Made by a program: the position numbers and the translations under genes
Notes under the pieces: generated by a model
What the model saw: only the letters and a program-made list of their open reading frames with translations
Told to the model about the DNA's origin: nothing
The model's database searches: none
Origin: a virus
Reading direction: 5' to 3' (one strand)
DNA length: 64,000 nt
Virus record (IMG/VR): IMGVR_UViG_3300045988_115450
Coordinates: 32,001-96,000 of that record
In this document: in pieces, positions 3,626 to 43,889 of the stretch
Layout of the letters: every line of letters starts with the position of its first letter
Numbering within the stretch: position 1 is the first letter of the stretch

Positions 3626-3838
3626 TCACCACCCTCTCATTTTCATTTGCTCTCCTTTGCACTTCTTCTGTTTGCTTCCTTTCGCTAATTTCCTATTTTC
3701 CTTGCACTGACTGCAATTGTTTCTATCTCTGCAAAGCCAGCACCCATCCCTATTTCCCCACGCCCAATGCGGTATAGAAGGACGTGGCTTTCTTCTAGCT
3801 TTTCCCACCACTACACCACCTCTTACAAAACCGTTCAA
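3626..3838 (-). CDS. basic Cys-rich hypothetical protein (start uncertain)
   Basis: CWLCRDRNNCSQCK; overlaps the upstream gene by 44 nt, so an internal GTG start is likely. Confidence 0.4.
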   Translation of the reverse strand: MNGFVRGGVVVGKARRKPRPSIPHWAWGNRDGCWLCRDRNNCSQCKENRKLAKGSKQKKCKGEQMKMRGW

Positions 3839-4169
3839 ATTCTTCTACTTCGTCTAGGTCTGCATCAAAATACACACCTTGCGTCGGAAGAGCCGAATGC
3901 TGCGGGCCAATCATCATGTAAGCAGTTCCTTTGTGCCGTCGTTCTTCTAGAAAGATTGGGTTCCCAGACTTAGTAAAAGCCTCTCGGATTGTTAGTTTGT
4001 TTGTTAGCATTTTTCTACAGTGGTTAACGGACACCTTCGTAGACACGCAACTCTCATCTTCACTTCGGCAGCATAAGAAAAGCTCACCTTTAGATGAGCT
4101 TAAAAATAGCACCGGATATCGGTGCTCGAAGAATACATATTCAATAGACCAGTCTTTAATAAGCTCCAT
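3795..4169 (-). CDS. hypothetical protein (124 aa)
   Basis: Track ORF is 3795..4310. Trimmed to MELIKDW..., just after the stop of 4156..4407. Confidence 0.5.
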   Translation of the reverse strand: MELIKDWSIEYVFFEHRYPVLFLSSSKGELFLCCRSEDESCVSTKVSVNHCRKMLTNKLTIREAFTKSGNPIFLEERRHKGTAYMMIGPQHSALPTQGVYFDADLDEVEEFERFCKRWCSGGKS

Positions 4170-4407
4170 CAAACCCCAACCTTTCATCAATAATAGCCTC
4201 GGTTGCATCTTGCTGGATAACGCCAGCCAGCATGTGAGCAGTTGTCGGAGTACACTCGTAGTAATTAGAATAAATCTCCTCCGTGTCTTTACCAATAGCA
4301 ACAATAGCAATGCTCGTTACGTCGCTAATCACGCTACTGATCTCATCTAAGGATTCCGCAAAGAAGTCCTGATACCGAACGTCTTTATTTGAAATAATAT
4401 GTACCAT
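4156..4407 (-). CDS. hypothetical protein (83 aa)
   Basis: ORF track; packed array. Confidence 0.55.
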   Translation of the reverse strand: MVHIISNKDVRYQDFFAESLDEISSVISDVTSIAIVAIGKDTEEIYSNYYECTPTTAHMLAGVIQQDATEAIIDERLGFDGAY

Positions 4408-4419
4408 ACAGTGTCCTCC

Positions 4420-5628: not shown

Positions 5629-6005
5629 TACACCACCATCACAATCCATGTTAAAATAATCTGACAAATATGAACCAGCTGATCCTGAACCAGGTTGATT
5701 TTCTTAAAGTTCGCCTTCAAGTCGTCAACACAGAAGTGAATAACGCAGTTCACTACCAGCATAACAAAAAACAGGACCGGTAGGTTGAGCTTCAGATAAA
5801 CCGCCACCGGCAGCATCGTCATGAACGTCCAGCTAGAAGCGTGCATAAACAGTGCTGCAAGATAGTCGTGCCTGTACTTCTCTCCAGGAGAGTTCTTTCT
5901 CCACCAATCCTTCTGCTTCATACTGGCAAGCACACCCTGCAGGTAATAATCATCCACGATGTGAGCAAACAGCATCACCAATAACACAAATAGCTTAGTC
6001 TGCAT
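5628..6005 (-). CDS. small multi-pass membrane protein (DUF3307-like)
   Basis: Four hydrophobic segments; HIVDDYYLQ motif near the N-terminus. Confidence 0.6.
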   Translation of the reverse strand: MQTKLFVLLVMLFAHIVDDYYLQGVLASMKQKDWWRKNSPGEKYRHDYLAALFMHASSWTFMTMLPVAVYLKLNLPVLFFVMLVVNCVIHFCVDDLKANFKKINLVQDQLVHICQIILTWIVMVV

Positions 6006-9410: not shown

Positions 9411-10577
9411 TTAGTTTTTGAGATCCTTCTTCATCGTGGCTTCAATATCAAAGCCAAACTTCTGACTATAGCGAGTGATAACTCCATCAATACTTCCTCT
9501 GTTAACCATTCGATAGTAGCTCATAAGACCGAGCACATATTGCAGTTGCTCAAGAGGCCAATAAGTTCCGCTCTTTCTGTCCTTCGCGTAATTGAAAAGC
9601 ATCGCCTCGAAGTTGCGCTTCTTCTTATACCCAATCGTGATCTGGTTGTCCTTGTTGATCATCACACCGAGTACCCAATTCTTATGATACGAGGGGCCGT
9701 AATGAGTTTTCTCATCTTTGATGAGATAACTGGCCCCGAAAAGTCTAAACAGATTTTCAATCTTTCTGATAATGAAGCTCTTATCAAACTCAATACCACA
9801 GCTGATGTTCATATCATCAGCATATCTGGTATACGCGAACCTTCTACCCTTTTCATCAGGGTTGTTTTCCGGGTTCTGCAGGCTACGCAGAAACTTACTG
9901 AACTCAAAATCAAACGGAATCATAATCAGATTGGTCAGCATCGGGCTGATCGGCGTTCCCATAGGTAGACCTCCATCCAGGAAGCAAAGCGACAGAGCTT
10001 TTCTAAGCTCTTCTCTCCCGCTTTTGCACTCCATAATGAGACAGAACGGGTAAATCATAGACAGCGCGTTCCATACAAACTCCGGAGTGGTATTAGGAAA
10101 GAAACCGCTGATGTCAGTCTTTAAATACCACTTGCTCTTATTCCACTGATGGACTTTTGCGGCGTCTACACTACTTCTGTTTTTGACATAAGCGTATGCA
10201 GCGGCATGGCTGCTCGCATAAAACTCAGATTCTAACAGCAGTTTTAGCTCTCGCAGACAATTCATCAGTTCGTCGTCCGGCGCGTTAATCTCTCTCATGC
10301 CGCCGCTCTTTTTCGGGATAAAAAACTTATGGTAATGTGTATGAAGATCGCTTTCAAGCAGTTCCTGATGCTTTTTGTTAAATGCTCTCAGTAGTTCAAT
10401 CTTTTTCCCCGTGTCAAACCCTGCCAGGATTCTCTCGGGCAGTCTCTCATATGCAACTGTTCTAGTATATAGAGATCTCGATTCCCTCACATGTTTATCT
10501 TGAAGCAGCGCAGACATAATATCCTCTAAAGAAATCTGCTTATACGGCTCTGTAATTCTTGCTGTTACATAAATCAT
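9411..10577 (-). CDS. reverse transcriptase, retron-like (388 aa, RT domain only)
   Basis: FFIPKKSGGMREINAP (RT1); SSVDAAKVH; LKTDISGFFPN (RT3); LPMGTPISPMLTNL (RT4); YTRYADDMNIS (RT5, YADD); NWVLGVMIN at the position of the retron VTG block. No accessory domains. Confidence 0.85.
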   Translation of the reverse strand: MIYVTARITEPYKQISLEDIMSALLQDKHVRESRSLYTRTVAYERLPERILAGFDTGKKIELLRAFNKKHQELLESDLHTHYHKFFIPKKSGGMREINAPDDELMNCLRELKLLLESEFYASSHAAAYAYVKNRSSVDAAKVHQWNKSKWYLKTDISGFFPNTTPEFVWNALSMIYPFCLIMECKSGREELRKALSLCFLDGGLPMGTPISPMLTNLIMIPFDFEFSKFLRSLQNPENNPDEKGRRFAYTRYADDMNISCGIEFDKSFIIRKIENLFRLFGASYLIKDEKTHYGPSYHKNWVLGVMINKDNQITIGYKKKRNFEAMLFNYAKDRKSGTYWPLEQLQYVLGLMSYYRMVNRGSIDGVITRYSQKFGFDIEATMKKDLKN

Positions 10578-10937: not shown

Positions 10938-11037
10938 TTAGATTGAATTGGTTGTTAGCAGGCGTGCCATTCCCCTGCATCTCTTTAGCCATTAAGGCGC
11001 GTGGCGACACGAAATTTCCACCTCAAACAACCAATAT

Positions 11038-17825: not shown

Positions 17826-17902
17826 TGGTGGTTCCTGCCCGGCTCGAACGGGCGACCATCCAGTTATGAGCTGGACGCGCTAACCAACTGCGCTAAGGAA
17901 CC
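17826..17902 (-). tRNA. trnM-CAU: tRNA-Met or Ile2 (anticodon CAU), 77 nt, CCA encoded
   Basis: Reverse complement folds as GGTTCCT-TA-GCGC-AGTTGGTTA-GCGC-G-TCCAG-CTCATAA-CTGGA-TGGTC-GCCCG-TTCGAGC-CGGGC-AGGAACC-A-CCA. Confidence 0.9.
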
Positions 17903-17978
17903 AGGTACGTTTAAAGCCGCTGAATTTATCAGCGGCTTTAAACTGTTAATGAAAGCAAGTGTCCGTATAAAACGAACG

Positions 17979-18053
17979 TGGCAGCGCCGGACTGAGATCG
18001 AACAGTCTTCCACGGAGTCAAAGTCCGTTGCATTACCGTTATGCTACGGCGCT
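17979..18053 (-). tRNA. trnQ-UUG: tRNA-Gln (UUG), 75 nt, CCA encoded
   Basis: AGCGCCG-TA-GCAT-AACGGTA-ATGC-A-ACGGA-CTTTGAC-TCCGT-GGAA-GACTG-TTCGATC-CAGTC-CGGCGCT-G-CCA. Confidence 0.85.
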
Positions 18054-18164
18054 ATATAAATCAAGCAGAGCAGAGCAGAGTTTAAAGCCATTCCAGGCTA
18101 TGTAAAGAAAGGAGGTGGTTTATCAACAATAACAGGTAGGAGAATCATTTTCTGTTGCTTGATA

Positions 18165-18239
18165 TGGGGTAGGCGACGAGTGCCGATCTCGCGTTTCCGG
18201 TTTGGAAGACCGGTGTTCTAGCCGTTGAACTACGCCTAC
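18165..18239 (-). tRNA. trnG-UCC: tRNA-Gly (UCC), 75 nt, CCA encoded
   Basis: GTAGGCG/CGCCTAC acceptor stem; CCGGT-CTTCCAA-ACCGG anticodon arm; unusual T-loop ATCGGCA. Confidence 0.8.
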
Positions 18240-18269
18240 ATTTTTGCGGTTCCGCAAACCGCATTTTTT

Positions 18270-18899
18270 TTAATTCATATATAAATCATAATAACTTTGT
18301 TTTCTTCTTGGTTTCAAATCTGGATTTTTTAAACGCCTTTTGATGAACTCAACTGTATTATCCAGCCCATAGTTCCTGACGTATGTATTGATCCTGTTTG
18401 CTCCCAAACCTAAAGTTTTAGCCCAGTCCTTCCCAGTATGTATCGTTCCGTCAACATCAATAAGCGAAGTTGTAGACTTGTATTTCGAATTATCTGCCAA
18501 TGTTACCCATCTGCAATTATCAGGAGAATAATCCCCGTCCCAATCAATTCTATCAATAGTCAAACCATCATCGTACCCGTTAGTTAATGACCAACTCTCA
18601 AATAATTCTGGATTGCGCATCCAATCATCACAAACCTTAACACCCTTAGCGCCATACCATCTGTAGCTCTTATTACTCTTATCATAGCACCTAGCTTTCA
18701 TATCGCTAAAAATTCTCCGGAGCTTGTCGTCACTCCATGAAGCATCATAATTTATATAACCCCCGCTTCTTCCGATATGTCTACAAGCTTTCGCCTGCTC
18801 AATATGCCTTTTCTGTTTGTTCGTTTCAAACCCACACTCAGCACATCTCACATGGTATAATCTATGCCCGTCCCTATGCCTGAAATCACACTCATACAA
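18270..18899 (-). CDS. HNH_3-like homing endonuclease with C-terminal HTH (209 aa)
   Basis: N-terminal CAEC...C..H zinc finger. TIDRIDWDGDYSPDNCRWVTLADNSK resembles DHIDG...NLRWVT..EN, but the first His is Arg. C-terminal WAKTLGLGANRINTYVRNYG. Confidence 0.6.
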   Translation of the reverse strand: MYECDFRHRDGHRLYHVRCAECGFETNKQKRHIEQAKACRHIGRSGGYINYDASWSDDKLRRIFSDMKARCYDKSNKSYRWYGAKGVKVCDDWMRNPELFESWSLTNGYDDGLTIDRIDWDGDYSPDNCRWVTLADNSKYKSTTSLIDVDGTIHTGKDWAKTLGLGANRINTYVRNYGLDNTVEFIKRRLKNPDLKPRRKQSYYDLYMN

Positions 18900-19047
18900 G
18901 ACATCGAAAATACCTATCCTAGTACCAACAATATTCTCTTTTTCCAGAATATCACCATCTTTCTGCGTGTTGCTAAATAATAATCCGATGAGAGTGCTGC
19001 CCTCTCGCCTGCGTTGTTCACTGTACTACTGTTATACTAATCGGATG

Positions 19048-19128
19048 TACGGGCGACAAGATTTGAACTTGCAAGCCTTACGGCACCGGGGCCTAAACCC
19101 GGCGTGTATACCGTTCCACCACGCCCGC
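19048..19128 (-). tRNA. trnL-UAG: tRNA-Leu (UAG), type II, ~81 nt, no encoded CCA
   Basis: GCGGGCG acceptor stem; CCGGG-TTTAGGC-CCCGG anticodon arm; long variable arm; T-arm GCAAG-TTCAAAT-CTTGT. Confidence 0.8.
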
Positions 19129-19210
19129 ATGGCACCACTAAGTCATGGTCGGCTGCGCATTTATCCTTTTTTGAATCGTGGTAGATGATTTTGCTTCGTA
19201 CAACCACGCA

Positions 19211-19285
19211 TGGACTGAGTGGAGAATTTTGAAATCTCGACCTCTGGTTCCCAAAACCAGCGTTCTGCCTCTGAACTACACCCAG
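19211..19285 (-). tRNA. trnP-UGG: tRNA-Pro (UGG), 75 nt, CCA encoded
   Basis: CTGGT-TTTGGGA-ACCAG anticodon arm; T-arm GAGAT-TTCAAAA-TTCTC. Confidence 0.8.
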
Positions 19286-19288
19286 ATA

Positions 19289-19363
19289 TGGAGGCCGATG
19301 CGAGTTCGAACTCAGCGTCTGTGGGTTACAAAGCCACTGTTTTACCACTTAAACTAATCGGCC
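19289..19363 (-). tRNA. trnT-UGU: tRNA-Thr (UGU), 75 nt, CCA encoded
   Basis: GGCCGAT/ATCGGCC acceptor stem; anticodon loop TTTGTAA with a C31-C39 mismatch; T-loop TTCGAAC. Confidence 0.75.
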
Positions 19364-19513
19364 ACGCACCCCGTTTTGCGGGGTGGCTATGTAAGGGAAT
19401 CAAAAAGGGGAACTCCTGTCTCTTCCAGGATGCCAACACACTACTACGGACTGCCAGAGGCAAACCGCCACTTTTCAGGTGTCATAGTCCGCAAACTATG
19501 GGCTTTTCTTTAG

Positions 19514-19595
19514 TGCGGGATAAGAGACTTGAACTCTTACGTCTATCGACATCGAGACTTAAACACGAGGTGTCTACCGATTCCACCAATCCCGC
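19514..19595 (-). tRNA. trnL-UAA: tRNA-Leu (UAA), type II, ~82 nt, no encoded CCA
   Basis: GCGGGAT/ATCCCGC acceptor stem; loop TTTAAGT; long variable arm TGTCGATAGACGT; T-arm AAGAG-TTCAAGT-CTCTT. Confidence 0.8.
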
Positions 19596-19602
19596 ATATT
19601 GA

Positions 19603-19940
19603 ACTTGCTACAACCCAGCCTGGTGGTTGACCCGTGGGCGTTGATAACTGACCCAAACCATTAACCCAGGATTTTGTAAAACTTTAACCGTTAACCTTTG
19701 ATTCTTGAACTTTAATCTTCTGAAGATCTTTGAGCCTTGAATTTTGAAATTTTAACTTTGAAGTTTGAGCTTTACAGCAACATTTCTTCTATAAGAAATT
19801 AGATTAACAGTCCAATCTTTTTGTAAGCGCAAAATTTCAAGTTTTGCTTTGTAGTTGGCACATATTTGTTCATTTTTACATCGAACCAAGTGCCGTCAGC
19901 ACGATGGGTTACCGTTTTAGGTTTTCGGGTTGCAGCAAGT
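19603..19940 (-). other. IR-bracketed ~340-bp ORF-free element with short-period repeats
   Basis: ACTTGCTACAACCC (19603-19616) versus GGGTTGCAGCAAGT (19927-19940), matching at 13/14. Interior has AACTTTAA / CTTTGA / GGTTAAYGGTT repeats and several local hairpins. Confidence 0.4.
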
Positions 19941-19948
19941 TGCTTATT

Positions 19949-20602
19949 TTAGTATTCTACGGTGATTGTAGTGGTCGCATTGGACACAGATAGCTGAGAA
20001 TCTACATCCGCAGTAAACGTGTCAATCCAATCGCTCAAAACCTTGATTTCATTACCAATGTCAAGCGGATCAACGAGTTCATACGTATTGTTGGCAATAT
20101 ACTCTTCTCTCAACCGCTTAACGACCTCAGAATCCTTGGTTGTCTTGGCCTCTTTAGGCTGGCACTGGAGGAAATTCATGATATACTGTTCAGCTTTCGC
20201 TTCAATCCACTCGCCTTCATGTTTGGAAACCTCAGCACGGGCTCTTTCGTACTGCCGGACCATTACATCAAGCAAATCTTTCTTAGCCATGATTCCATGG
20301 CTTTTCATTTCGATGGCTTCGGCTACGGTGTAAGGTTCGCCGCCAATTACCACCGGGGTTTTGGCATTGGAGAGCACAACTGCTCTCTTAATAGCCGTCC
20401 GACGAGCAATCAAGTCCGTAACAGACTGATAATCAGACTTCATATCCTTCTTGAGGGTTTCGACCAGCACACCGCCGATCTTTTTGTCGCTCACTTTCTT
20501 ACTGGCAACGAAGGTTTTACCAGAAGTAGCATTGAAAATTCTAGCGTCCAAAATTTTCAGCTCTGCAAGAGCTTTATGGACGGTCATAGTTTCTTTGTTC
20601 AT
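19949..20602 (-). CDS. hypothetical protein (217 aa) embedded in the tRNA island
   Basis: ORF track; plus-strand ORFs 20019..20333 and 20219..20635 are shadows. Confidence 0.65.
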   Translation of the reverse strand: MNKETMTVHKALAELKILDARIFNATSGKTFVASKKVSDKKIGGVLVETLKKDMKSDYQSVTDLIARRTAIKRAVVLSNAKTPVVIGGEPYTVAEAIEMKSHGIMAKKDLLDVMVRQYERARAEVSKHEGEWIEAKAEQYIMNFLQCQPKEAKTTKDSEVVKRLREEYIANNTYELVDPLDIGNEIKVLSDWIDTFTADVDSQLSVSNATTTITVEY

Positions 20603-20653
20603 ATTAGTTCCTCACTTTCTTATTTATGGAATTAGATTTTTATCGTGGTATCG

Positions 20654-20744
20654 TGGTCTCCCTGGGTGAATTCGAATCACCATATACCTTATGAGGGCCT
20701 TCCAATTATAAGTTGGAAGCTATAACCAATTTAGCTACAGGGAG
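20654..20744 (-). tRNA. atypical 91-nt tRNA, anticodon UAU, long variable region, CCA encoded
   Basis: CTCCCTG-TA-GCTA-AATTGGTTA-TAGC-T-TCCAA-CTTATAA-TTGGA-(19-nt variable AGGCCCTCATAAGGTATAT)-GGTGA-TTCGAAT-TCACC-CAGGGAG-A-CCA. Confidence 0.65.
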
Positions 20745-21024
20745 ATATTTGTTCAGCAACCACAACCGCCCTATCAATCAGTCGGCCTAACCAAAAGATA
20801 GGGCTGGATTGTGTTGCCCAACCGTGCCTGAGAGCTTTCTTGCCTAGCCTGTACTTAACCAGGTGTCTGCAATCAATGTTTAGGTTGCTGGTTTTGACCC
20901 TCGCTCTAGAACCAGTTAACTAGAGCGATTGAGAGCTACTAGACGGAATTGCACCGCCTTGAAGTCATAAGTGAGGCGCGAGAGGAGTTACGCCCACCTC
21001 TTCACCTGCTTGGAGTAGCATATG

Positions 21025-21100
21025 TGGCACCAGCACTAAGATTCGAACTTAGAACTACGGTTTTGGAGACCGCCGTTTTTCCACTTAAAACTATGCTGGT
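21025..21100 (-). tRNA. trnW-CCA: tRNA-Trp (CCA), 76 nt, CCA encoded
   Basis: ACCAGCA-TA-GTTT-AAGTGGAA-AAAC-G-GCGGT-CTCCAAA-ACCGT-AGTT-CTAAG-TTCGAAT-CTTAG-TGCTGGT-G-CCA. Confidence 0.9.
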
Positions 21101-24989: not shown

Positions 24990-25700
24990 AGAAGGGTCAT
25001 TACAGGCAGAGCCCCTAAAGGGGCATTGAAAAGTTTGACACCGCATTACCATTACAGGCCGCCGCTAAAGCGGCCTGTTTTTATGCCTTCCTATTCTTGC
25101 TACCCGTAAACGGGTCAATGTATTCTTTCATCGTAATCTGATCCATCATTTCATCTTCAATCAACTGATTGCGGATATACTCTTCGATCACCCGCTTGTT
25201 CTTCCCTACCGTATCTACATAATAACCACGGCACCAGAAATGTCGGCTGCCATACTTGTATTTCAGATTTGCGTGGCGATCAAAAATCATCAGTGTGCTT
25301 TTTCCCTTGAGAAACCCCATAAACTGTGATACACTCAAATGCGGAGGCATACTCACCAACATATGCACATGGTCAATGCACGTTTCTGCTTCAATAATCT
25401 CCACTTTCTTTTCGTCGCACAACTTCCTCAAAATCTTCCCAATATCCGCCCGCAATTCTCCATAGATTGCCTTACGACGAAATTTCGGTGCAAATACCAG
25501 ATGATACTGACATCTCCATGTCGTGTGTGCTCCATGGTGCAAGTCATTCTTTCCCATATCTATAACCTCCTTTTTGTTTCTTGGTAATGCGGTCGCCAAA
25601 CCTTTACCATCTTACACTAGGAGGTTATTCTTTTCTACTTTTACTGAAGTTTTTCCCACCCCCAGTAGAACTGGGGGTTTTTTCATGCTAAAGCGCCAAC
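24990..25700 (-). mobile_element. IS200-type (IS200/IS605 family, TnpA-only) insertion; ends approximate
   Basis: Y1/HUH transposase flanked by subterminal hairpins: CAGGCCGC...GCGGCCTG at 25054-25077 and CCCCCAG-tagaa-CTGGGGG at ~25660-25678. Also a 12-bp inverted repeat of ACCGCATTACCA at ~25039 and ~25583. Confidence 0.55.
25081..25557 (-). CDS. tnpA: IS200/IS605-family Y1 transposase TnpA (158 aa)
   Basis: YHLVFAPKFRRK; HUH motif IDHVHMLVS; catalytic Tyr context WCRGYYVDTVG; start behind AAAGGAGG. Confidence 0.85.
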   Translation of the reverse strand: MGKNDLHHGAHTTWRCQYHLVFAPKFRRKAIYGELRADIGKILRKLCDEKKVEIIEAETCIDHVHMLVSMPPHLSVSQFMGFLKGKSTLMIFDRHANLKYKYGSRHFWCRGYYVDTVGKNKRVIEEYIRNQLIEDEMMDQITMKEYIDPFTGSKNRKA

Positions 25701-26738: not shown

Positions 26739-27725
26739 TTACAGATTAAACGCTTCTTTGTAAACCTTATACATCTTTATAGCGTTGTAATACCCTTTTT
26801 TCTGACGGAATACATCTTCCACCAGCGACTGATTCGTGTGATCAAAAACATCTACACCAGACTGTTCAATTCTGTACAGCTCGTGATACCGCCCAGACCG
26901 CCAAACATTTTGATACGTATGGCGGCGTGGGTAGCCTAGCGCTTGGTATTTTTTAGCCATTCTGCTGCATTGGTTGTTGACTGCTGCTAGAGAATATTCT
27001 TTCCCAAACTCCTCTATTCCAACCAAAACCATTCGCTTTAAGAACGAGCCTACAGATGTGTCTTTTACCGCTTGGACCGTTCCAGAACCTTTCGTTCTAA
27101 CAGAGTACTTACACGCACAATATCTTTTCAAAGTATCACAGACAGTATCAGAAAACCCGCTTGTGAGGATAGAACCATCTTGACCGTAGATAATCCTATC
27201 GTCTAAATCCACATCGTTATCTCTTAGGGCGATAATTTCTACATTATTCAATCCAATCCAGTTCAAGCAAAAAACAGGATACTCTATATACCCTGCATCA
27301 ATAGGAAGCACTTTTTTAATAGACTCCACTAAGTCAATATCGTCTTTGAATAGAGACTGCTCTAGCGGTTCTATTAACCGGATGTCTTCTGGAGACACTT
27401 CGAAGATCCCGTCTGACACATTTACAAAAACCTTGTTTTTCTTGCACCATTTTGAATACTGTCTTAACATGCTAATAGCACTTTTTACGGTCGCAGATTC
27501 TGCTATTCCCATAGCATGAACAGCTGCGACGCAATGGCCTTGATCCATCTGCGCAATATCTAACCTGCATTCTTCTTCATAACTAGCTATTTTGTTAAAA
27601 ACCCACGTGATAGAAGATTTCTTAGTATACCCCATCTCCTTGCAAAATCCCATTTTAACATCCTCGTTATACAAGATACCACCACCTTTTAGGCAATGAT
27701 ACCATGTATAATCAAAATCCGTCAA
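26739..27725 (-). CDS. hypothetical protein (328 aa)
   Basis: ORF track; no catalytic motif recognised. Confidence 0.6.
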   Translation of the reverse strand: MTDFDYTWYHCLKGGGILYNEDVKMGFCKEMGYTKKSSITWVFNKIASYEEECRLDIAQMDQGHCVAAVHAMGIAESATVKSAISMLRQYSKWCKKNKVFVNVSDGIFEVSPEDIRLIEPLEQSLFKDDIDLVESIKKVLPIDAGYIEYPVFCLNWIGLNNVEIIALRDNDVDLDDRIIYGQDGSILTSGFSDTVCDTLKRYCACKYSVRTKGSGTVQAVKDTSVGSFLKRMVLVGIEEFGKEYSLAAVNNQCSRMAKKYQALGYPRRHTYQNVWRSGRYHELYRIEQSGVDVFDHTNQSLVEDVFRQKKGYYNAIKMYKVYKEAFNL

Positions 27726-27938: not shown

Positions 27939-28107
27939 ACAGCGTCCTACCTTTCCGCTACCCTAGCAAGCTGCTGCTAGGGTAGCTTTTTTTTGCAGGC
28001 ATAGACAGAATCCACCTATGTTATCCCTGCGACCTCGCAGGCCAGGGCGATCCCAGCCTACGAACGCTCCCGGCCTAACGCCTGTTTATAGTCGCCGGGA
28101 CGACTCT

Positions 28108-31168: not shown

Positions 31169-31218
31169 AGTAACATAATCAATAGAAAACATTTCAAATT
31201 TAAAAGGAGGTTTTGCCA

Positions 31219-32109
31219 ATGAGCAACCTAATTTCTTTCCCCAACGGTACTGTCAATCCCGCCAGCAAAACTGTCAACCCCGCGTCCATCGACGTCAACT
31301 CTGTCCGCCGCTCACGGACTGCCGACAGTAGCCGTTCACGGGTACTCAAGCAGTCCGCTGCCAGCCGGATCACCGCTCAGAGCGACCAGCCGGTAGAGGT
31401 CATCACCGCACCTGACCGAGCGGCTGACCCTATTAAGAGTGTTGACGACATTCGTAAAGCGTGTTCCTACCTACTGGACAGCCATCGCTACAGAGACCAC
31501 ATGCTGCTGGTTATGGGTATCAATTTCGGCCTGCGAGTCAGTGACCTGCAGCGTCTCCGGTTCACCCACATCCTGAACGAGGACTTCTCCTTTAAAGAAT
31601 CCTTTGAGATCCTGGAAAAGAAAACTGCCTCCACCCGTAAAAGAAAAAAGAACCGCTACGTTGTCATCAACGACGCGGTCATGGACGCTGTGGAACTCTA
31701 CCTGGAACACGCTCCCTACCCCGTCAGCCTGTCTGACCTCGTGTTCCGTTCTGAGAGCAATAACCGTGGTGCTTACGAGCCTGGTCCTCTCAACAGAAGA
31801 TCCGTCAATCGTATCCTAGAAGATATCGCCGACCACTGCAATTTCGATTTCCGGTTCTCCTCTCATTCCCTCCGCAAGACATTCGGCTACCACCAAATGA
31901 TGATGTCCGGCAACGATCCTCGCAAGCTGGTACTCCTCCAGAAGATGTTCGGCCACTCCTCCATGAACGAGACCCTCTGCTATATCGGCCTCACCAAGGA
32001 AGAGATGACCGAAGCCTACGCCAATCTGAACCTGGGTGGCAACGGATACGACTACCAGCTCGCTGCTCTGTACGAAGCACCTGCTGATTCAACCCCCGCC
32101 GCCATTTGA
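31219..32109 (+). CDS. int: tyrosine recombinase / integrase (296 aa)
   Basis: FGLRVSDL (Arg I), HSLRKTFG (H-x-x-R), GHSSMNETLCYI (His...Tyr). ATG at 31219, 8 nt after the RBS. The track starts at TTG 31213. Confidence 0.85.
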   Translation: MSNLISFPNGTVNPASKTVNPASIDVNSVRRSRTADSSRSRVLKQSAASRITAQSDQPVEVITAPDRAADPIKSVDDIRKACSYLLDSHRYRDHMLLVMGINFGLRVSDLQRLRFTHILNEDFSFKESFEILEKKTASTRKRKKNRYVVINDAVMDAVELYLEHAPYPVSLSDLVFRSESNNRGAYEPGPLNRRSVNRILEDIADHCNFDFRFSSHSLRKTFGYHQMMMSGNDPRKLVLLQKMFGHSSMNETLCYIGLTKEEMTEAYANLNLGGNGYDYQLAALYEAPADSTPAAI

Positions 32110-34637: not shown

Positions 34638-35662
34638 CTAAAATAGTAGCAATGCTGTCCGGCTGTGATACGTCTGATATTCAGTATGGCGAGGACGTAC
34701 TGTCCAGCAACTTGGTGTTTCCTCCTAGCGCCGCTTATGACCTCCAGGGCTTCTGCGCTGGCGTTAGGCTGGATACCCTGCCCAGGCTTGTGGCTTTGTC
34801 ACTCCACACTATCCCGGTGATAGAAATAGATTTCAGTAAGGGTGACAGCGGCGATAGTAGTCCTGATGGCGATAGCGACATAGACGGCAGCGACAGCGAC
34901 GACAGCTTTGATCTAGACGCTTTTGACACGACCGAGACCGAAGATAATCATTGGCATGTGATTCTTTCTAGTAGCACGCACTCTCCTCAGATGGCTACTA
35001 GAACCGAGATCGGAGAGATTGCTATGCTTGATAAGAGTAGTTTAGATAATTTATTTTTAAAATGTGTTCCCTTAAATATACTTCGACCAGACTGGTTTGG
35101 TCATTGGTATATAAACGATAATTTCTTTCTACGTGGAACTAAGCCAACAAGCGGGTCGTGGCAATATGTTAAGGTTCGAAAAGTTAAAAAAGACACCTTC
35201 CTCCAGCTTTATAAAAAAGGAACCGGCAATTTAAAATACATAGGAGCTGTGCTGAGGCTAACACCAAACCTTAATTGTGAACACAACTACCTCTGTTACA
35301 ACCCAGATGAAACACGTAGCGATGAGATTGTCCCCTTAGCCGCCCAAGATATCTGCAGGGTGTTAGGTTACGAGCCGCGCCGGGCTTCCTACTACATAGA
35401 CAAACTCAAGGAAAAATTTTTAGGGATCACTTTTAAGCACGATGGCATAGAGCAACAGCTCTGCCGAATTGACAAAGATGGGAGCGACTACATAATGATG
35501 GTAAACCCCAACGTCATCTACGCCGACGGCCCGCCAGAGTACAAACGGATCTGCCTGGAGCTGTACTGGGGTTACCCGGACCCGTTCGGCTCTCCGTTCC
35601 GACGGTATCCCTATCATCATATAAAAGGCCCGACACTAGACTACGTAAATAGAGTAAACTGA
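34628..35662 (+). CDS. Rep-like wHTH DNA-binding protein, paralog 2, with an acidic D/S insert (344 aa)
   Basis: Homologous C-terminal domain; SGDSSPDGDSDIDGSDSDDSFDLDAFD low-complexity acidic tract. Confidence 0.6.
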   Translation: MSVTKIVAMLSGCDTSDIQYGEDVLSSNLVFPPSAAYDLQGFCAGVRLDTLPRLVALSLHTIPVIEIDFSKGDSGDSSPDGDSDIDGSDSDDSFDLDAFDTTETEDNHWHVILSSSTHSPQMATRTEIGEIAMLDKSSLDNLFLKCVPLNILRPDWFGHWYINDNFFLRGTKPTSGSWQYVKVRKVKKDTFLQLYKKGTGNLKYIGAVLRLTPNLNCEHNYLCYNPDETRSDEIVPLAAQDICRVLGYEPRRASYYIDKLKEKFLGITFKHDGIEQQLCRIDKDGSDYIMMVNPNVIYADGPPEYKRICLELYWGYPDPFGSPFRRYPYHHIKGPTLDYVNRVN

Positions 35663-35755
35663 ACGGGTATATGTCTATATACCCTACGGATTGTCTCCCT
35701 CGTTTTCCTACAGCCACACAGGGGCTTTTACACTAAACTGACCACTTGATAGGAG

Positions 35756-36019
35756 GTGATAGACATCAGCGCACACAACACCTGCGTCAATCTATGCAAG
35801 TGCTGCGTGTGGTACGACGACTGTAACTCGTTTCAGGAAAATAAGAGAACCGACACTACCCCAGAAAAAAATAGTGTATACTTGTATTATGAGCTGGACA
35901 GCCAGTGCGAATTTTTTGACCCAACCGTCGATTCGGAAGACCTTGGGTTAGTCGAGCTGGACGGGCGGTGGGTCGAAGCATCTGAGGCTCTGATAATAAA
36001 TGTCATGACAGAGATTTGA
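35756..36019 (+). CDS. Cys-rich hypothetical protein (87 aa)
   Basis: ORF track; CVNLCKCCVWYDDC. Confidence 0.5.
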   Translation: MIDISAHNTCVNLCKCCVWYDDCNSFQENKRTDTTPEKNSVYLYYELDSQCEFFDPTVDSEDLGLVELDGRWVEASEALIINVMTEI

Positions 36020-36020
36020 A

Positions 36021-36356
36021 ATGGAGGAATGTAAAATGGGTTTATTTGACAAGATGAAGAAGCGCAACGAAAAACAGTATGTACCGCACGTACACTACCC
36101 GGACGAATGGCCGTCCGACATGAAGATCGAACCGGGCGTCACCCCGACCGTAGTGATCTGTGAACCCGGCGCTAACCGCTACAGAATCATCGCTACGGAG
36201 TATTGGAGTCAGCGGATGATCGGTGAGTTGGCCACCACCTCTCCCCGTGTCCACGTCATGCGAGAAGACGACAAGGTGATTGAAGCAACCTTCCCCGGCG
36301 AGTGGTTCAAGATCGAGTCCCCGCAAATGGCGGAGCTACGGAATAAGAAGAAATAA
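36021..36356 (+). CDS. hypothetical protein (111 aa)
   Basis: ORF track. Confidence 0.55.
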   Translation: MEECKMGLFDKMKKRNEKQYVPHVHYPDEWPSDMKIEPGVTPTVVICEPGANRYRIIATEYWSQRMIGELATTSPRVHVMREDDKVIEATFPGEWFKIESPQMAELRNKKK

Positions 36357-36606
36357 AAGAAAGAGTAAACTTTAAGCTGGGCGGCGACGCCGCCCAGCGC
36401 CAACAAACGATTCAAGGAGATGATCGCTTTTATGATAAGAGAGGTGCTTTTGACTGTTCGCACCTAAGTTATATACGACATATAAGATAGCTTTCAAGCT
36501 ATTAAAAGAGAACAAATTTTCTTTACGGGTAGACCTGCGCCCCTACGAGATAAGGCAGGCGGACAATTTATTATTCTACCAGATACGGCGTATCACAGGC
36601 GAAGAT

Positions 36607-38013
36607 GTGACCTGTGCGCGGCGTATTTGTTTTGTCGATTGTAAGGGTAGCTCTTCTGATACGGACGCTATGACGGAGCTAATTATGAATGGGTTCTGGT
36701 TAAACGGCACTCACTTTGTACTGTGCGAACGATCGGCGAGCATGACCCGCAACTCTATCTTGAGCTTTATCGACGCGACTATATCAGATCCGGTGTACGA
36801 GACAATCACTATGGGGGCTGACCCCGGCCCGACAGTTATAAGTAAGCTAATGGCTTATAGAGGCTTGTGCCTTTCCTCTTGTCATTGCTTGAATGGCTTT
36901 CGCCCTAAAGTGATTGTTGTGCCGGACTACGAGTGCGTGTTGCCGCAACAGCATATCAAATACATATACGATGAAAAGACATCCTTCATCAACGCTGACG
37001 GCAAAGAGATCCCCTGGACACAAAAGAATGTGGCGGACGGATATAGAGACATCAACGTCACGCCCTTTGACGGCTGCGGCATACACCATCCAGCTATTAC
37101 GGACGAGGTTCAGTTCCGGCTGTCGTCTGCTGATAGCCCGACGACGATACTTTGGCGAGCGCCGTATATCAAAGGTCTCACCTGCGAGGTTGATTACCCA
37201 ACCTTCTACGCCGAGCGGGGTGTAACATCCATCAAGGATATATGGGGCGTGTCGCATGATGTTACCCCGGACGCCGAGCCGATGATTATCTTGAGCAAGA
37301 GTATGTATAAGGGCTTCAAATATTTTCAGACGAACAAAGATGCAACAGACTGGGAATATTATTGGGAGCAATTCGAAAAGTATGGTTATTGCTTAGGTGT
37401 TGCTAAATGGAACTTCAATAAAGATATCGAGCCAGTTTATACGAGATGCAACTACCAGGTTCTTCAGACGCTCAACCTTCCTTATCAAGAATTTGTTGAG
37501 CTTGCTACGGACTCTATTGAGTGGGCAGAAAAGATTATTGACGGCGATCCTTTTTACTCTATGTGCTTCCTAGGGTTGACAGCAGATAAGTGTAACCCCT
37601 TGAACGATTATGCAAAATCAGTAATGAAGAACCCAACCATGCTTAAACAATATGAAGTGCGGAGTTACTTAATCAGTCTACTGGCTAAATACATAGACGA
37701 GATGTGCTGCGGCAAGATATGGATCAAGAGCTGCTTCAAATTTCTGATACCCGACCTAATCGCATTTATGGAAGCGGCGGCGGGTCTAGTCCCGTCCGGC
37801 TGTCTCGGCGACAATGAATTTTACTGTATAACAAAAGAAGGTCCGATGTGTGGCGACAAGCTGATTACGCGTAACCCCCACATTTGTGATAGTGAGAATG
37901 TCGTGTTGTACGCTATCAATAATGAATTAACAAGCAAGTACCTCAGTCATTTGGTTAATACGTGTATCATCAATTCTAAATCAATAATCCCACAAAGATT
38001 GAATGGAGCAGAT
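36607..38013 (+). CDS. YonO / cellular-RdRP-like two-barrel polymerase, exon 1 (469 codons; start uncertain)
   Basis: ...GDKLITRNPHICDSENVVLYAI...NTCIINSKSIIPQRLNGAD, then broken. This matches the RDR/QDE-1-type block xxRxPxxxxxxxxxxxA...G(G)DxDGD. The ORF stops 3 codons after GAT. Confidence 0.75.
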
Positions 38014-38291
38014 TACTCCTAAACAAAGTCCTTCCCTGCGGTAACGTAGGTGTAAGCCCGGTGTGAACCGTTTATCAGCGGGTGTTGAACAAACGTCAGG
38101 AGCAGCAGGAAATGGCTGCTAGTTGTTCAGCTAACAGGGAAGCCGGAAGGTAATCCTGTGCAAGCCTTTAAGGAATGTGCAACGACTATGGGTGATGAGT
38201 GTAGCCCAGTAGGAGTCCTATTGATACGGACTTCCAAGCGCACCGCTGCCGCTACGCGGTAGATGATATAGTCTTTCTACGAGAGTAGAAG
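38014..38291 (+). ncRNA. group I intron 1 (278 nt, ORF-less); boundaries +/- a few nt
   Basis: P7 pairing GACTAT / ATAGTC inside the hallmark GATGATATAGTC; P4 CAGG/CCTG; P6 CCTT-T-AAGG; terminal hairpin TTCTAC-gaga-GTAGAA followed by G. Splicing GAT|TTTGACGGAGAT restores NGAD-FDGD. Confidence 0.75.
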
Positions 38292-38599
38292 TTTGACGGA
38301 GATTTAGTTTTAGTATTTAATGATGACAGGCTATTAAATGGCGTAGATAAAAACGCTATACCTGTTATAGACGTAGATGATAAGATCACGACAGAGCCGG
38401 AGGAATTTACGCCAGAGAACAGGTTGAAAGTAATTCTACGAACAATGAAGAACCTGATTGGCGAGTATAGTAACTACGCAACAGCATACAGAAACAGATG
38501 TGGTAAAACAGAGGAACAACGAGATAAGTACGAGAAGTATATTGACATTATAAGTGTCTTGACAGGTAAATCCATCAACGATCGGTGGCCTATGTTGGT
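38292..38599 (+). CDS. two-barrel polymerase, exon 2
   Basis: Starts FDGDLVLVFNDD... in frame with the track ORF 38424..38609. The 3' end is inferred. Confidence 0.65.
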
Positions 38600-38876
38600 A
38601 ACAGCGTAGCGCAAAGTCAGTGAACCTACATATGTAGGGTGTCGGTTAATGACCGGCTAACGGAGAAAATCTAAGCGACTTATCGTATGACAATTCCGTG
38701 CCAAGCCTTTGAAAAGGAAGGTGTAACGACTATCCCCTGGCGGTGAGATTCCGCAATAGGAGTACGGCTGAGTGAAATTCTCAGTGGGTGAGATTCCCTT
38801 AAATGGAAGCGCTGACTACCCGTAACTTACGGGTAATGATATAGTCTATTCCCTAACAAATATCCGGAAACGGAGG
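38600..38876 (+). ncRNA. group I intron 2 (~277 nt, ORF-less); boundaries +/- ~10 nt
   Basis: Same core as intron 1 (CAAGCCTTT..AAGG..GTG.AACGACTAT, ...AATGATATAGTC). P4 covaries (CGGA/TCCG). Terminal hairpin TCCG-gaaa-CGGA followed by G. The 38607/38875 junction is also in frame. Confidence 0.65.
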
Positions 38877-39528
38877 GTGTAAAAGAGATTACGCAAAGAC
38901 CGGAGTCCTATACCCCATGCCACGTACTATTTCAAAATACGGACGCCCACTCCCCTACTTTATGAAGTACGCGTCACCATATTATAAACGGCTGAAGCTT
39001 TCCCGCTCACTGTCTAATATGAATAAGCTGTGTTGGGAAATTGAGCATTGGAAGAGAAGCATCAGGTATAAAAGAGCCGACCAAGAGTTCGACTATAACA
39101 TCATGATTAACGATGAAATCCCTGTTTCGGACGAACTCTACAAGGAAATGGAGCAAGTCTATCGCTCGTTCTGCACAGAGGTAAAAGAGCTGTCGCACAA
39201 GTTGAAACAGCTCGATGGAGAGGACGCGGAAGCGGAACGCAAGAAAGCATACGCCCTACTGTACGAGCGGTATAGGAATCGATGCTACTCTATTTGTAAC
39301 GGCAACGCCTCGCTGGTTGCTAACGCCGCCGTTATGTTGTGCCATGACCACAGGACGTGGAATCAGCGGTTTAAGTGGGTTGTTGGCGGCGCTGGCATTG
39401 TTAGCAATATCGAGCAGGCAGACATCAAACTGCCAAAGCAGGATGATACAGGAGAACTCGAATACCTAGGAAAGAGATACACGATGATTAAGATAAAGAA
39501 GGAGGATGTTCCCTCATTTGATAGATGA
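38877..39528 (+). CDS. two-barrel polymerase, exon 3
   Basis: The frame is open from 38857 and continues into the track ORF 38917..39528. Confidence 0.6.
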
Positions 39529-40192
39529 AGTATATGAAGTAAAAGAGTATTTGGGTGGAAAGAAGATAACAGAGCGCGGTCGTTATCGCGCCGCCTATAT
39601 GATCGCTCGGTGGTACACCCAGGAAGGGTGTACCTTCCGGGAGACGCGGGACAAGATTTTTGAATGGGCAAAGAGAACGGATAACTTTTTAAAGTACAAT
39701 GTGAATGACATTATTGAATCGGCGCGTAATTGTGATGATAGATTAAAAGATAATGTGACTTTATACATAAGCGAAACAGACATCAACAGAATCGTCAATT
39801 TGTTTGACGGAAAGAATACACGCAAACTTGCTCTAGCTCTGCTATGCTATGCGAAGGTGTACGCAAATAAGAATAGAGAATTTAACATTTCCCTATCCGC
39901 TTTATCTGAGTGGTGCGGTATCACCAGACAGCATATTAGCCACAGCTACTTACCGGAGCTTATTAAGCTTGGGTACATCACGAAGCTGGACTCTAGCGCC
40001 ACTACAGTGTGGCATCGAGCTAAGAAAACAACCACTAGTAAATATGCTCAGACTAGATTGCGTATAGAGGTTCCGCTTTATAACGCTGGAAAGTTTCAGC
40101 TTGTACGCAATGACTTTAAAAAGTTACATAATGAAATATTTGAAAAGACACAGCGAAATCGGTTTTATATAGAGGGAGAGAACTATGGTTAA
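39506..40192 (+). CDS. wHTH DNA-binding protein (228 aa)
   Basis: LSALSEWCGITRQHISHSYLPELIKLGYITKL (HTH plus wing); start codon uncertain. Confidence 0.6.
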   Translation: MFPHLIDEVYEVKEYLGGKKITERGRYRAAYMIARWYTQEGCTFRETRDKIFEWAKRTDNFLKYNVNDIIESARNCDDRLKDNVTLYISETDINRIVNLFDGKNTRKLALALLCYAKVYANKNREFNISLSALSEWCGITRQHISHSYLPELIKLGYITKLDSSATTVWHRAKKTTTSKYAQTRLRIEVPLYNAGKFQLVRNDFKKLHNEIFEKTQRNRFYIEGENYG

Positions 40193-40540: not shown

Positions 40541-41299
40541 ATGAGAAAAATACTAGGTGTTTTGTTTGCAATATGCGTGGCCACATCACTGGCTGGTTGC
40601 GGCGGCGGAAGTTCTTTCACAGTTGGAGAATTCTGTGACACATATAATAAAAGTCTCGAAGCCTGGAGCGAGACTTTCTCTATCGATTATGGGTCGATGA
40701 CGCGTCTAAACAAGACTAATAGTAGCGGTTCATTTTCGCTGATTGATGGGTCTAAAATTAAAATCTCCACAGGGAGAGATTCTGTTGGCGAAAATGATTC
40801 TGTACAAGAAGTCGCGTTTATTTGCAATTTTAAAACGACCGATCAAAGTACGGATAACGCATTCAATTCGGAGCTTTTTTCCTTTCTCGAAGCCGCCCTA
40901 CCAAACGCCACCCCTGATGATAGGAATCAGGTGATGAAGTGTTATGCAAATGGTGCTGGATTTTTGCCAGAGTTGAGTGATGGAAAAGTAGTCGATCACG
41001 GCTACAGTTCTTTTGTGATCAACTATAGTGGCAAGGAAACACCAGATTATACTGGTAAATATCGTAGCGTTGAAGATAATAGTAATATTGAAATTGAGCT
41101 AGATGTAAAGAGCTTTGGCGTTGGCAATATTAATGTTACTGTTAATGGTAATTCCACTGGCCCGACCAGTATAAGGTGGGGAGTTTCTGATAACAATTTT
41201 AATATTATTTCTCAATCTGAAAGCAACGTCTTGAGCGGGAAAATTGATGGTAACACAATTACGCTTAACACTGGCTCCGTATTGGAGAAGCAGGAGTAA
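40541..41299 (+). CDS. lipoprotein (252 aa)
   Basis: Signal peptide MRKILGVLFAICVATSLAGC with lipobox L-A-G-C, then GGGSS linker. Confidence 0.8.
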   Translation: MRKILGVLFAICVATSLAGCGGGSSFTVGEFCDTYNKSLEAWSETFSIDYGSMTRLNKTNSSGSFSLIDGSKIKISTGRDSVGENDSVQEVAFICNFKTTDQSTDNAFNSELFSFLEAALPNATPDDRNQVMKCYANGAGFLPELSDGKVVDHGYSSFVINYSGKETPDYTGKYRSVEDNSNIEIELDVKSFGVGNINVTVNGNSTGPTSIRWGVSDNNFNIISQSESNVLSGKIDGNTITLNTGSVLEKQE

Positions 41300-41306
41300 A
41301 AATTTT

Positions 41307-41333
41307 AGCGGCCTTCTGGCCGCTATTTTTTTT
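41307..41333 (+). terminator. rho-independent terminator
   Basis: AGCGGCC-ttct-GGCCGCT followed by T8. Confidence 0.85.
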
Positions 41334-42863: not shown

Positions 42864-43889
42864 ATGCCACGTAAGACAAAGTATAACAATATCACTAGCC
42901 CTGCGCTTTTAGAGCAGGTTAACCCAGAAAATAAAAGATTGAAGAACGATTTCCTTACTTATCTAAAATCAGTACAAAGAAGTAATGGAACAATTGATGG
43001 GTACTCCCACGACCTCGACATCTTCTTTGTATGGAATCTGCAGAACAACAATAATAAATTCTTTGTTGACTTATCAAAGCGTGACCTGATCTCATATCAG
43101 AACTGGCTTATCTACGAGAACGAAAACTCCCCCGCAAGAGTCAGACGTCTAAAGGCCGCCCTTTCTTCCCTATCCAATTACGTAGAGAATATTTTGGACG
43201 ACGAGTATGAAGGATATCGTCCAATCGTGAGGAAGATCGAGTCCCCAATCAATCAGCCGGTTAGAGAGAAAACAGTGTTCTCTGATGAGCAGTTGCAGTC
43301 GCTGCTAGATATTCTGGTTAAAGAAGAGAGGTTTACTCAAGCGTGCGCACTGTCACTTGCTATGTGCAGCGGAAGAAGAAAGTCGGAGCTGTTACGTTTT
43401 AAGGTAGACTGGTTCACAAGCGACAACATTATTTACGGGTCGCTATATAAGACTCCGGAGAAGGTAAAAACAAAAGGTGCTGGCAACGGTAAATATCTTT
43501 ATTGTTACACCCTCTCAAAAGAGTTCGACCCTTACTTAGACCTCTATATGAATTGGAGAAAAGAAAATAACGTGGAGAGCGAATGGTTGTTTTATGACAA
43601 AGCAGATCCCACGAAACAAATGAATATTTCTACGCTGAACAGCTGGGCTGTTCGGTTTAGCAAAATATTGGGCGTGCCGTTCTATTGGCACGCCTTACGT
43701 CATTTCTTCACCACAAAGTTAGCACGGCTTGGTCTGCCGGATAGTGTTGTGCAGACTGTTATCGGCTGGAGTTCCGCCGATATGGTTCGGCTGTATGACG
43801 ACACTCCTGATGACGAACAGTTGGAAAAGTATTTTGGTGAAGATGGAATTAAAACAGATGTTAAGGCAACTGGACTAGCTGACCTGTAA
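42864..43889 (+). CDS. tyrosine recombinase, XerC/D-like (341 aa)
   Basis: N-terminal SAM-like core-binding domain; CSGRRKSEL (Arg I), HALRHFFTT (HxxR), GWSSADMVRLYDD (catalytic Tyr). Confidence 0.8.
   Translation: MPRKTKYNNITSPALLEQVNPENKRLKNDFLTYLKSVQRSNGTIDGYSHDLDIFFVWNLQNNNNKFFVDLSKRDLISYQNWLIYENENSPARVRRLKAALSSLSNYVENILDDEYEGYRPIVRKIESPINQPVREKTVFSDEQLQSLLDILVKEERFTQACALSLAMCSGRRKSELLRFKVDWFTSDNIIYGSLYKTPEKVKTKGAGNGKYLYCYTLSKEFDPYLDLYMNWRKENNVESEWLFYDKADPTKQMNISTLNSWAVRFSKILGVPFYWHALRHFFTTKLARLGLPDSVVQTVIGWSSADMVRLYDDTPDDEQLEKYFGEDGIKTDVKATGLADL

Follow-up and report, generated by a model that had tools for sequence, protein, structure and literature searches.

A phage gene for a YonO-type RNA polymerase, probably interrupted by two group I introns

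How can a gut-phage polymerase gene encode a complete catalytic site when its reading frame breaks off inside the metal-binding motif? The question is raised by positions 36454-39528 (plus strand) of a 64,000-nucleotide (nt) stretch of viral DNA, positions 32,001 to 96,000 of the IMG/VR record IMGVR_UViG_3300045988_115450, referred to here as the window. An earlier reading of the window, the original prediction, placed a spliced gene here for a two-barrel polymerase related to YonO of the Bacillus subtilis phage SPbeta and to eukaryotic RNA-dependent RNA polymerases (RdRPs). The analysis presented below makes it likely that the region is a single gene for an 828-residue YonO-type RNA polymerase (RNAP), interrupted by two self-splicing group I introns and most probably serving late-gene transcription. 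To our knowledge, no relative of cellular RNA polymerase is smaller than the YonO-type enzymes, of which SPbeta YonO is the only one characterised. The enzyme family itself is already known, and the protein described here is a member of an under-studied but common family.

Structure of the polymerase gene

The open reading frame (ORF) at 36607-38022 ends ...IIPQRLNGADYS before its stop codon, and FDGDLVLVFNDD is encoded from 38292 in a different frame. The two hold the halves of one motif: exon 1 ends ...RLNGAD at 38013 and exon 2 begins FDGDLV at 38292, so that joining T38013 to T38292 gives GCA GAT^TTT GAC GGA GAT (the caret marks a junction here and below) and restores NGADFDGD. A chance join is ruled out because three features cross the junction. 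In the PHROG profile phrog_8308, position 550 is the last to align with exon 1 and position 551 the first to align with exon 2; Pfam does not recognise exon 1 by itself, and the spliced protein matches the family RdRP (PF05183) with 56 bits (E 4e-15, profile positions 59-571 of 582; cut-off 23.8 bits); and more than 100 uninterrupted homologs of about 800-880 residues carry PQRLNGADFDGDLVLV across the exon 1/exon 2 junction.

The same uninterrupted homologs carry ...GKSIDYAKTGVLYPMPR further downstream, at the GKSIDYAKTG motif. In the window, GKSI is followed by a stretch with stop codons and the DYAKTG reading resumes only at 38887. As the motif is continuous in the homologs and broken in the window, a second intervening sequence must lie at 38576-38885, splitting codon I615 (AT^A). 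An intron-free homolog, L002, whose protein P0001 is 72% identical, is colinear with the window at the DNA level in three blocks (Table 1), and both pairs of intron boundaries are therefore fixed to within 1 nt. Excision of both introns leaves a continuous frame of 828 codons, closed by TGA at 39526-39528, with NGADFDGD and GKSIDYAKTG as in the homologs P0001-P0003. The predicted spliced junctions read ...AATGGAGCAGAT^TTTGACGGAGAT... (38013^38292) and ...GGTAAATCCAT^AGATTACGCAAAG... (38575^38886).

A relative of 96% identity, L001, has kept both introns. Between its exons and those of the window there are 72 synonymous and 19 non-synonymous codon differences, and the introns differ by only about 2.4%. 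Since this ratio is found with both introns present, purifying selection has been kept on the exons, which implies that the introns are removed.

The original prediction quoted the ends of exons 1 and 2 as they occur in the sequence, obtained NGADFDGD by joining them and placed the stop at 39528 correctly. Its claim of a spliced gene is upheld by the Pfam match, which appears only after joining, and by the colinearity of the junctions with intron-free L002. It had counted a single splice and a product of about 790 residues, in place of the two introns (38014-38291 and 38576-38885) and 828 residues found here.

Other arrangements of the locus were also considered. An intein is rejected, as stop codons occur in all frames of both insertions. 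The ORFs at 35756-36019 and 36021-36356 are separate genes and not upstream exons, the N-termini of homologs placing the start of the protein at 36454. An Rfam scan of 35600-36900 for a third intron or an upstream exon was empty, and a megablast comparison of the phage collection with 24 kb of the window returned no close relative.

Table 1. Coordinates of the polymerase gene, its parts and its downstream neighbour, with the intron sites seen in related genes
Feature	Position in window	Strand	Details
Shine-Dalgarno-like AGAGGTG	36440-36446	+	read from the sequence; 7 nt 5' of the CTG; arrangement also in relatives
Exon 1	36454-38013	+	codons 1-520; ends in GAT, D520, the putative first catalytic Asp
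Exon 1 landmarks	37069-37173; 37870-37881	+	D206, R235, K240; R473-N-P475-H
Intron 1 (predicted)	38014-38291	+	278 nt, between D520 and F521 (GAD^FDGD)
Exon 2	38292-38575	+	codon 521 to first two bases of codon 615; FDGDLV, D522 and D524 at 38295-38303
Intron 2 (predicted)	38576-38885	+	310 nt, within codon I615 (GKSI^DYAKTG)
Exon 3	38886-39528	+	third base of codon 615 to codon 828 and TGA; starts A GAT TAC GCA AAG ACC GGA, (I)DYAKTG
Colinear block 1	36631-38014		L002 5493-6876
Colinear block 2	38292-38575		L002 6876-7159
Colinear block 3	38887-39672		L002 7161-7932
d1	39506-40192	+	228 residues, winged-helix/HTH_36-like; start overlaps last 23 nt of polymerase gene
Site A			GAD^(F/Y)DGD; L079, L080, L082
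Site B			I^D of ID(Y/F)AKTG; 13 loci
Site B'			NG^K, 9 nt upstream of B; L070, L061, L062
Site C			near residue 130; L070

Protein family, catalytic site and fold

Sequence and fold comparisons support the assignment of the spliced protein to the YonO/cellular-RdRP type of two-barrel single-subunit polymerases. BLASTP aligns it with SPbeta YonO at E 5e-27 (24% identity over residues 73-709, about 640 residues), with DNDGD opposite DFDGD and TIDFAKT opposite SIDYAKTG. Among phage genomes, tblastn finds SPbeta yonO in AF020713 / NC_001884 with an E-value of 1e-20. NCBIfam contains no model that matches the spliced protein.

Eight residues are invariant in all two-barrel RNAPs, namely D709, R738, K743, R962, P964, D1007, D1009 and D1011 of Qde1 (Ruprich-Robert and Thuriaux, PMC2919709). 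In an alignment of 66 homologs of the window protein, D206, R235, K240, R473, P475, D520, D522 and D524 are invariant. The spacing D..29..R..5..K is the same as in Qde1, and the distance from R.P to DxDGD is 45 residues, compared with 43 in Qde1. Judged by their order, their spacing and the YonO alignment, these eight residues would correspond to the universal set. By that correspondence, D520, D522 and D524 together with D206 would hold the catalytic Mg2+, and R235, K240 and R473 would hold the nucleoside triphosphate together with the 3' end of the RNA, as their counterparts do in all two-barrel polymerases.

From the 66-sequence alignment, AlphaFold2 gives a model with a mean predicted local distance difference test (pLDDT) score of 92.8 and a predicted template modelling (pTM) score of 0.89. 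Foldseek searches of the PDB with this model return QDE-1 and the RDR2 enzymes of maize and Arabidopsis (E 4e-22 to 5e-18, probability 1.00, template modelling (TM) score 0.5-0.58, more than 850 columns), the best values being 3.7e-22 for RDR2 (7w82) and about 1e-19 to 1e-21 for QDE-1 (2j7n/5fsw). The next match is the gp62 polymerase of phage P74-26 (6.6e-7), followed by large subunits of multi-subunit cellular RNAPs with marginal E-values. In a viral structure library, the model matches, at 1e-41 to 1e-38, phage proteins that bear the name 'RNA dependent RNA polymerase'. Searching the PDB by sequence alone, with the single protein and with the 66-sequence profile, returned no polymerase, and only the fold search succeeded.

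The identity put forward by the original prediction, a polymerase resembling YonO and the eukaryotic RdRPs, thus agrees with the above-threshold Pfam score, the YonO alignment, the eight residues and the Foldseek matches to RDR2 and QDE-1. The comparison that it proposed with QDE-1 and YonO recovers the first (with RDR2) by fold and the second by sequence, and splicing does rebuild a metal site, NGADFDGD, like the NADFDGD that it named. Its remark on the rarity of such enzymes in phages is contradicted by the size of the family, for which 43 phage records, 176 IMG/VR loci and 2576 protein clusters (50% identity) were found. The nearest members of the clade to which the window protein belongs come from gut Clostridia phages and are 46-72% identical to it. 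This large and well-conserved sister clade, common in human-gut Clostridia phages, is labelled 'RNA-dependent RNA polymerase' or left in fragments in databases.

Both insertions resemble group I introns

In matches that span the full model of Rfam family RF00028, intron 2 scores 34.7 bits (E 8e-7) and intron 1 scores 24 bits (E 1.3e-3); the gathering score is 50 bits. The two introns are homologous to each other and have in common GUGAACC, GGGUGU, CUAAC, AACGACUAU and AUGAUAUAGUC. U is the last base of each 5' exon and G the last base of each intron, and neither intron contains an ORF. A search of the window by nhmmer with the intron alignment found no further copies.

Covariation was examined in related introns of the same gene from IMG/VR contigs, with five sequences per intron class, a small sample. 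For the intron 1 class, RNAalifold predicts P3, P4, P6, P7.1, P7.2, P8 and P9. With the P7 pseudoknot added, 92.4% of cells are paired, a share that drops to 33-44% if the partners are shifted by 1-3 columns; 29 of the 56 pairs have changed on both sides, and none of 500 shuffles is as good. P7 (GACUA/UAGUC) is invariant in this class. The presence of P7.1/P7.2 between P7 and P3' is a hallmark of subgroup IA, and intron 1 appears to be a group I intron of IA-like type.

In intron 2, the P1 helix is formed by exon CCAU and the first intron C, which pair with GGUGG, and the splice-site U.G is kept in relatives. P2 consists of 8 bp closed by a GNRA loop and covaries at every position among the five related introns, pairs of P1, P4 and P6 also covary, and P3 (GUCAGUG/CGCUGAC) can be read from the sequence. 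There is thus strong covariation support, extending to the P3-P7 pseudoknot, for regarding both insertions as putative ORF-less group I introns.

On this basis both introns would be self-splicing. The primary transcript would carry the two of them, each would fold as a group I ribozyme and excise itself by two guanosine-initiated transesterifications, and excision would rejoin GAD^FDGD and GKSI^DYAKTG. The siting of the introns in the two most conserved motifs of the gene would be due to homing endonucleases, because these target invariant DNA; in the window copies, the endonuclease genes would have been lost. That genes for phage enzymes are interrupted by group I introns at catalytic motifs is a classical observation.

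Intron sites across the family

Insertions in the polymerase gene occur at 15 of 80 IMG/VR loci and fall at a few sites (Table 1). The site C intron of L070 is recognised by the Rfam group I model with 89.4 bits, over the cut-off (L070 2623-2901; insertion about 2636-4000), and the insertion contains a 332-residue ORF with DUF7487, a treble-clef zinc finger and DUF559. At L061 5849-6381, and also in L062, tandem group I introns occupy NG^K and I^D with an 8-nt micro-exon, AAAGCCAT, between them. The site-B insertions of L064 and L077, each of about 1 kb, encode GIY-YIG/NUMOD3 endonucleases according to Pfam, and a GIY-YIG motif is visible by eye in those of L078 and L081.

Among the representatives of the 50%-identity clusters, many fragments end ...NG(A/C)D or ...GKSID, or start with (F/Y)DGD. 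Since they break exactly at these motifs, the splits must be widespread and misleading to gene callers. These programs systematically cut such genes at NGAD^FDGD and GKSI^DYAKTG, on account of the group I introns that recur at both sites. Counting and studying the YonO-type family will require corrected gene models.

The same situation is encountered in Bacillus phages. In the phi3T-like SPbeta phage Goe11 (Bacillus phage vB_BsuS-Goe11, MT601272.1; L083), the annotation reads yonO_1 / hypothetical / yonO_2, and comparison with SPbeta reveals an unannotated yonO intron of 1289 nt at 4002-5290. It lies after ID^FAKT, 4 nt from site B, and contains a GIY-YIG/NUMOD3 ORF. The yonO match is split likewise in phi3T, SPR, Goe14 and several SPbetaL phages, where it breaks off near query residue 588. 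Direct alignment reveals clear homology between the Goe11 intron RNA and intron 2 of the window, P9 showing compensatory changes; a search against Rfam did not detect the Goe11 intron. A limited literature search found no published introns in yonO, which is weak evidence of novelty. Group I introns in YonO-type genes, and an intron lineage common to Bacillus and Clostridia phages, appear to be undescribed and are unsurprising in kind.

Start of translation

The frame of exon 1 is open from a CTG at 36454, immediately 3' of a TGA (36451-36453). The frame begins with 51 codons, LFAPKLYTTYK...IRQADNLLFYQIRRITGED, that include near-invariant residues and align with the N-termini (MFAPxLY...) of homologs. 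The start codon of the 96%-identical L001 is also CTG, and the aligned first codon in relatives is TTG in 32, ATG in 28, ATT in 8, CTG in 3 and GTG in 1 (the window not counted). In several relatives (L001, L015, L025, L029 and L030 are among the loci of this weak-start set), the first codon immediately follows a stop and a good Shine-Dalgarno site lies upstream. Taken together, the N-terminal alignment, the Shine-Dalgarno-like sequence and the starts of relatives make CTG 36454 the likeliest start, and translation would most likely begin at this weak codon behind a good Shine-Dalgarno site. The start at GTG 36607, which the original prediction had itself called uncertain, is 153 nt (51 codons) too far downstream in view of the homolog N-termini. 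The recurrence of weak starts in the polymerase family suggests deliberately low translation or coupling. A short out-of-frame ORF, from ATG 36420 to TAA 36467, overlaps the start of the polymerase gene in the window.

Gene neighbourhood and probable role

The polymerase gene is followed rightward by d1 (a helix-turn-helix (HTH) protein), two small ORFs, a terminator at 41306-41325, an exonuclease gene, an integrase-like gene, the terminase gene (45201) and the portal gene (46983). It thus stands upstream of the terminase and portal genes, in the same orientation. The original prediction had assigned it to a replication or early operon; the gene heads a module that leads into packaging genes, which is not clearly a replicative operon. 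The terminator-like hairpin at 41306-41325 is strong and bidirectional (8 bp, T-runs on both strands), follows a lipoprotein-like ORF (40541-41299) and may mark the end of the transcription unit to which the polymerase gene belongs. In the cultured Thomasclavelia phage TR-TP1, the order is polymerase, d1-like gene, HU/IHF-like gene, exonuclease, holin, endolysin and terminase.

YonO is a processive, strictly DNA-dependent RNAP with an essential Asp triad, and transcribes the late operon of SPbeta (Forrest et al. 2017, PMC5467207). Because of this analogy, of the position of the gene upstream of terminase and portal and of the gene order in TR-TP1, the most likely role of the window protein would be that of a phage-specific DNA-dependent RNA polymerase for late genes, independent of the host RNAP. 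The enzyme would transcribe the later genes of its own module, rightward into terminase and portal. Both the DNA-dependent activity and the identity of the transcribed genes would follow from the analogy.

Several observations weigh against the reading of the locus as a spliced, self-splicing gene for a late transcriptase. Template preference and target genes are extrapolated from a homolog, YonO, that is only 24% identical. A search for a repeated promoter-like motif, including the repeated 20-mer that the original prediction had suggested as a template, gave only two- or three-copy repeats at chance level; sigma-70-like sites are as frequent as expected from shuffling. The nearest neighbours, an HTH protein weakly like replication initiators and an exonuclease, fit replication as well. 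Both introns remain under the RF00028 gathering score (34.7 and 24 against 50 bits). For intron 1, the canonical P1 amounts to no more than about 4 bp (GAU^U with AGUC), and its local minimum-free-energy fold is a different hairpin with the splice site in the loop; this P1 is the weakest point of the group I assignment, and the homolog of intron 1 in L079 has a 7-bp P1. Finally, CTG is a rare initiator.

The alternative that survives best is that the polymerase serves replication, making primers or activating an origin bound by the co-transcribed d1, in a module with the exonuclease. The d1 protein has a Pfam HTH_36 match (E 4e-4) and weak matches to Phage_rep_O (Pfam) and to PHROG replication-initiation families; d1 adjoins the polymerase gene in 36 of 82 related loci, an exonuclease lies near it in 63 of the 82, and none of the window ORFs scanned was recognisable as a gene for a primase or a DNA polymerase. 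However, the matches of d1 to replication initiators are all under family thresholds, and its confident AlphaFold2 model (pLDDT 84) has no significant match among PDB folds. Moreover, the phage genome extends beyond the window and may have replication genes there, and YonO, the sole characterised homolog, is a processive late-gene transcriptase. A replicative role is accordingly regarded as unlikely.

Less probable still is a true RdRP that copies or amplifies phage or host RNA, for instance in regulation or counter-defence. The name of the Pfam family, the name 'RNA dependent RNA polymerase' given to NCBI homologs, and the closest solved structures, those of eukaryotic RDR2 and QDE-1, all point this way. 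These names, however, are inherited from the Pfam family and not from tests, and the window protein has direct sequence similarity to YonO, which strongly prefers DNA templates. According to PDB entry titles, QDE-1 itself forms complexes with DNA templates and can thus bind DNA as template. That the locus is a dead gene, its insertions decayed mobile elements that no longer splice and its exons relics, is very improbable: introns without homing-endonuclease ORFs and under the Rfam threshold, the weak P1 of intron 1 and the CTG start would fit decay, but none of the three exons is damaged or out of phase and no catalytic residue is missing, the codon differences from the intron-bearing L001 indicate purifying selection, the introns are more conserved than synonymous sites and keep their covarying helices, and weak start codons are the rule in this family.

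YonO-type enzymes are not known to have a factor that directs them to promoters. A speculative and rather doubtful extension is that the polymerase and the translationally coupled d1 form a minimal two-protein transcription system in which d1 recognises promoters, enzyme dosage and timing being deliberately kept low by three gates: a near-cognate start (CTG, ATT or TTG) and two introns in the catalytic motifs that must both self-splice. If this were true, d1 would fill the promoter-recognition gap for YonO-type enzymes. For experiments on promoter finding, the locus in any case supplies a compact model of high confidence (pLDDT 93) and, in d1, a candidate partner that is conserved.

Other features of the window

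Mobile and RNA elements are found elsewhere in the window. Three tyrosine-integrase-like ORFs (26739-27725, minus strand; 31213-32109 and 42864-43889, plus strand) and one transposase-like ORF (phrog_2577; 25081-25599, minus strand) are present, and four recombinase ORFs are unusually many for one 64-kb phage window. The leftward arm contains a full-length Pistol self-cleaving ribozyme at 28028-28105 (minus strand; 63.9 bits, gathering score 34.5), with integrase-like and transposase-like ORFs close by. A skipping-rope RNA (RF02924, 50.3 bits) at 10951-11031 (minus strand) is located just upstream of a reverse-transcriptase-like ORF (9411-10577, minus strand; phrog_2825/1423), and the two may constitute a retroelement with its non-coding RNA. 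A cluster of nine tRNAs at 17826-21100 (minus strand: Met, Gln, Gly, two Leu, Pro, Thr, Ile-tat and Trp) contains an HNH endonuclease ORF (18270-18899), and an RtcB RNA ligase gene lies at 4420-5667.

Comparison with known systems

The closest characterised system is YonO of SPbeta in B. subtilis (PMC5467207), likewise a single-chain two-barrel RNAP of about 830-840 residues, with an aligning DxDGD triad and ID(F/Y)AKT motif, encoded by a phage in or beside its late region. The two proteins are only 24% identical, however, and that of the window belongs to the separate large clade of gut Clostridia phages. Furthermore, SPbeta yonO is intron-free, and its metal motif is DNDGD, whereas the DFDGD of the window is nearer to the cellular NADFDGD.

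QDE-1 (2J7N) and RDR2 (7W82, 7ROZ) belong to the same Pfam family, PF05183, are the best structural matches and have the eight catalytic-site residues at nearly the same spacing. In contrast, their sequence identity to the window protein is only 12-16%, and they escape a sequence-only PDB profile search. They are also eukaryotic silencing enzymes that act on RNA or single-stranded DNA, whereas the window enzyme would more likely be a transcriptase of double-stranded DNA. The gp62 protein of Thermus phages P23-45 / P74-26 (8F5M; PMC10770324) is similar in being a non-virion, minimal single-chain RNAP with two double-psi barrels. It is nevertheless a much weaker structural match (TM score 0.34) and represents another lineage, lacking detectable sequence similarity.

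As for the introns, the classical phage group IA introns are those of T4 td, nrdB and sunY and of SPbeta bnrdE/bnrdF, which lie in the most conserved, catalytic parts of essential enzymes. The window introns resemble them in this placement, in the P7.1/P7.2 extension, in the ..GAUAUAGUC.. P7 core and in the occurrence of copies with and without endonuclease genes. They differ in their extra P3-P4 hairpins, in that both copies are under the Rfam threshold, and in their host gene, here that of a YonO-type RNAP. A closer counterpart of intron 2 is the yonO intron of Goe11, which interrupts the same ID(F/Y)AKT motif and shares with it the blocks AAAGTCAGTGAACCTA...TAGGGTGT and GAAGCGCTGAC...ATGATAT(A/G)GTCTATTCCCTAA..AAATATC.GGAAAC.GAGGGT. 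The Goe11 intron has 1289 nt with a GIY-YIG/NUMOD3 ORF, compared with 310 nt and no ORF in the window, and its insertion point lies 4 nt further downstream, the guide sequence differing accordingly. One intron lineage that has moved by 4 and 9 nt around a single motif offers a natural system for the study of intron retargeting.

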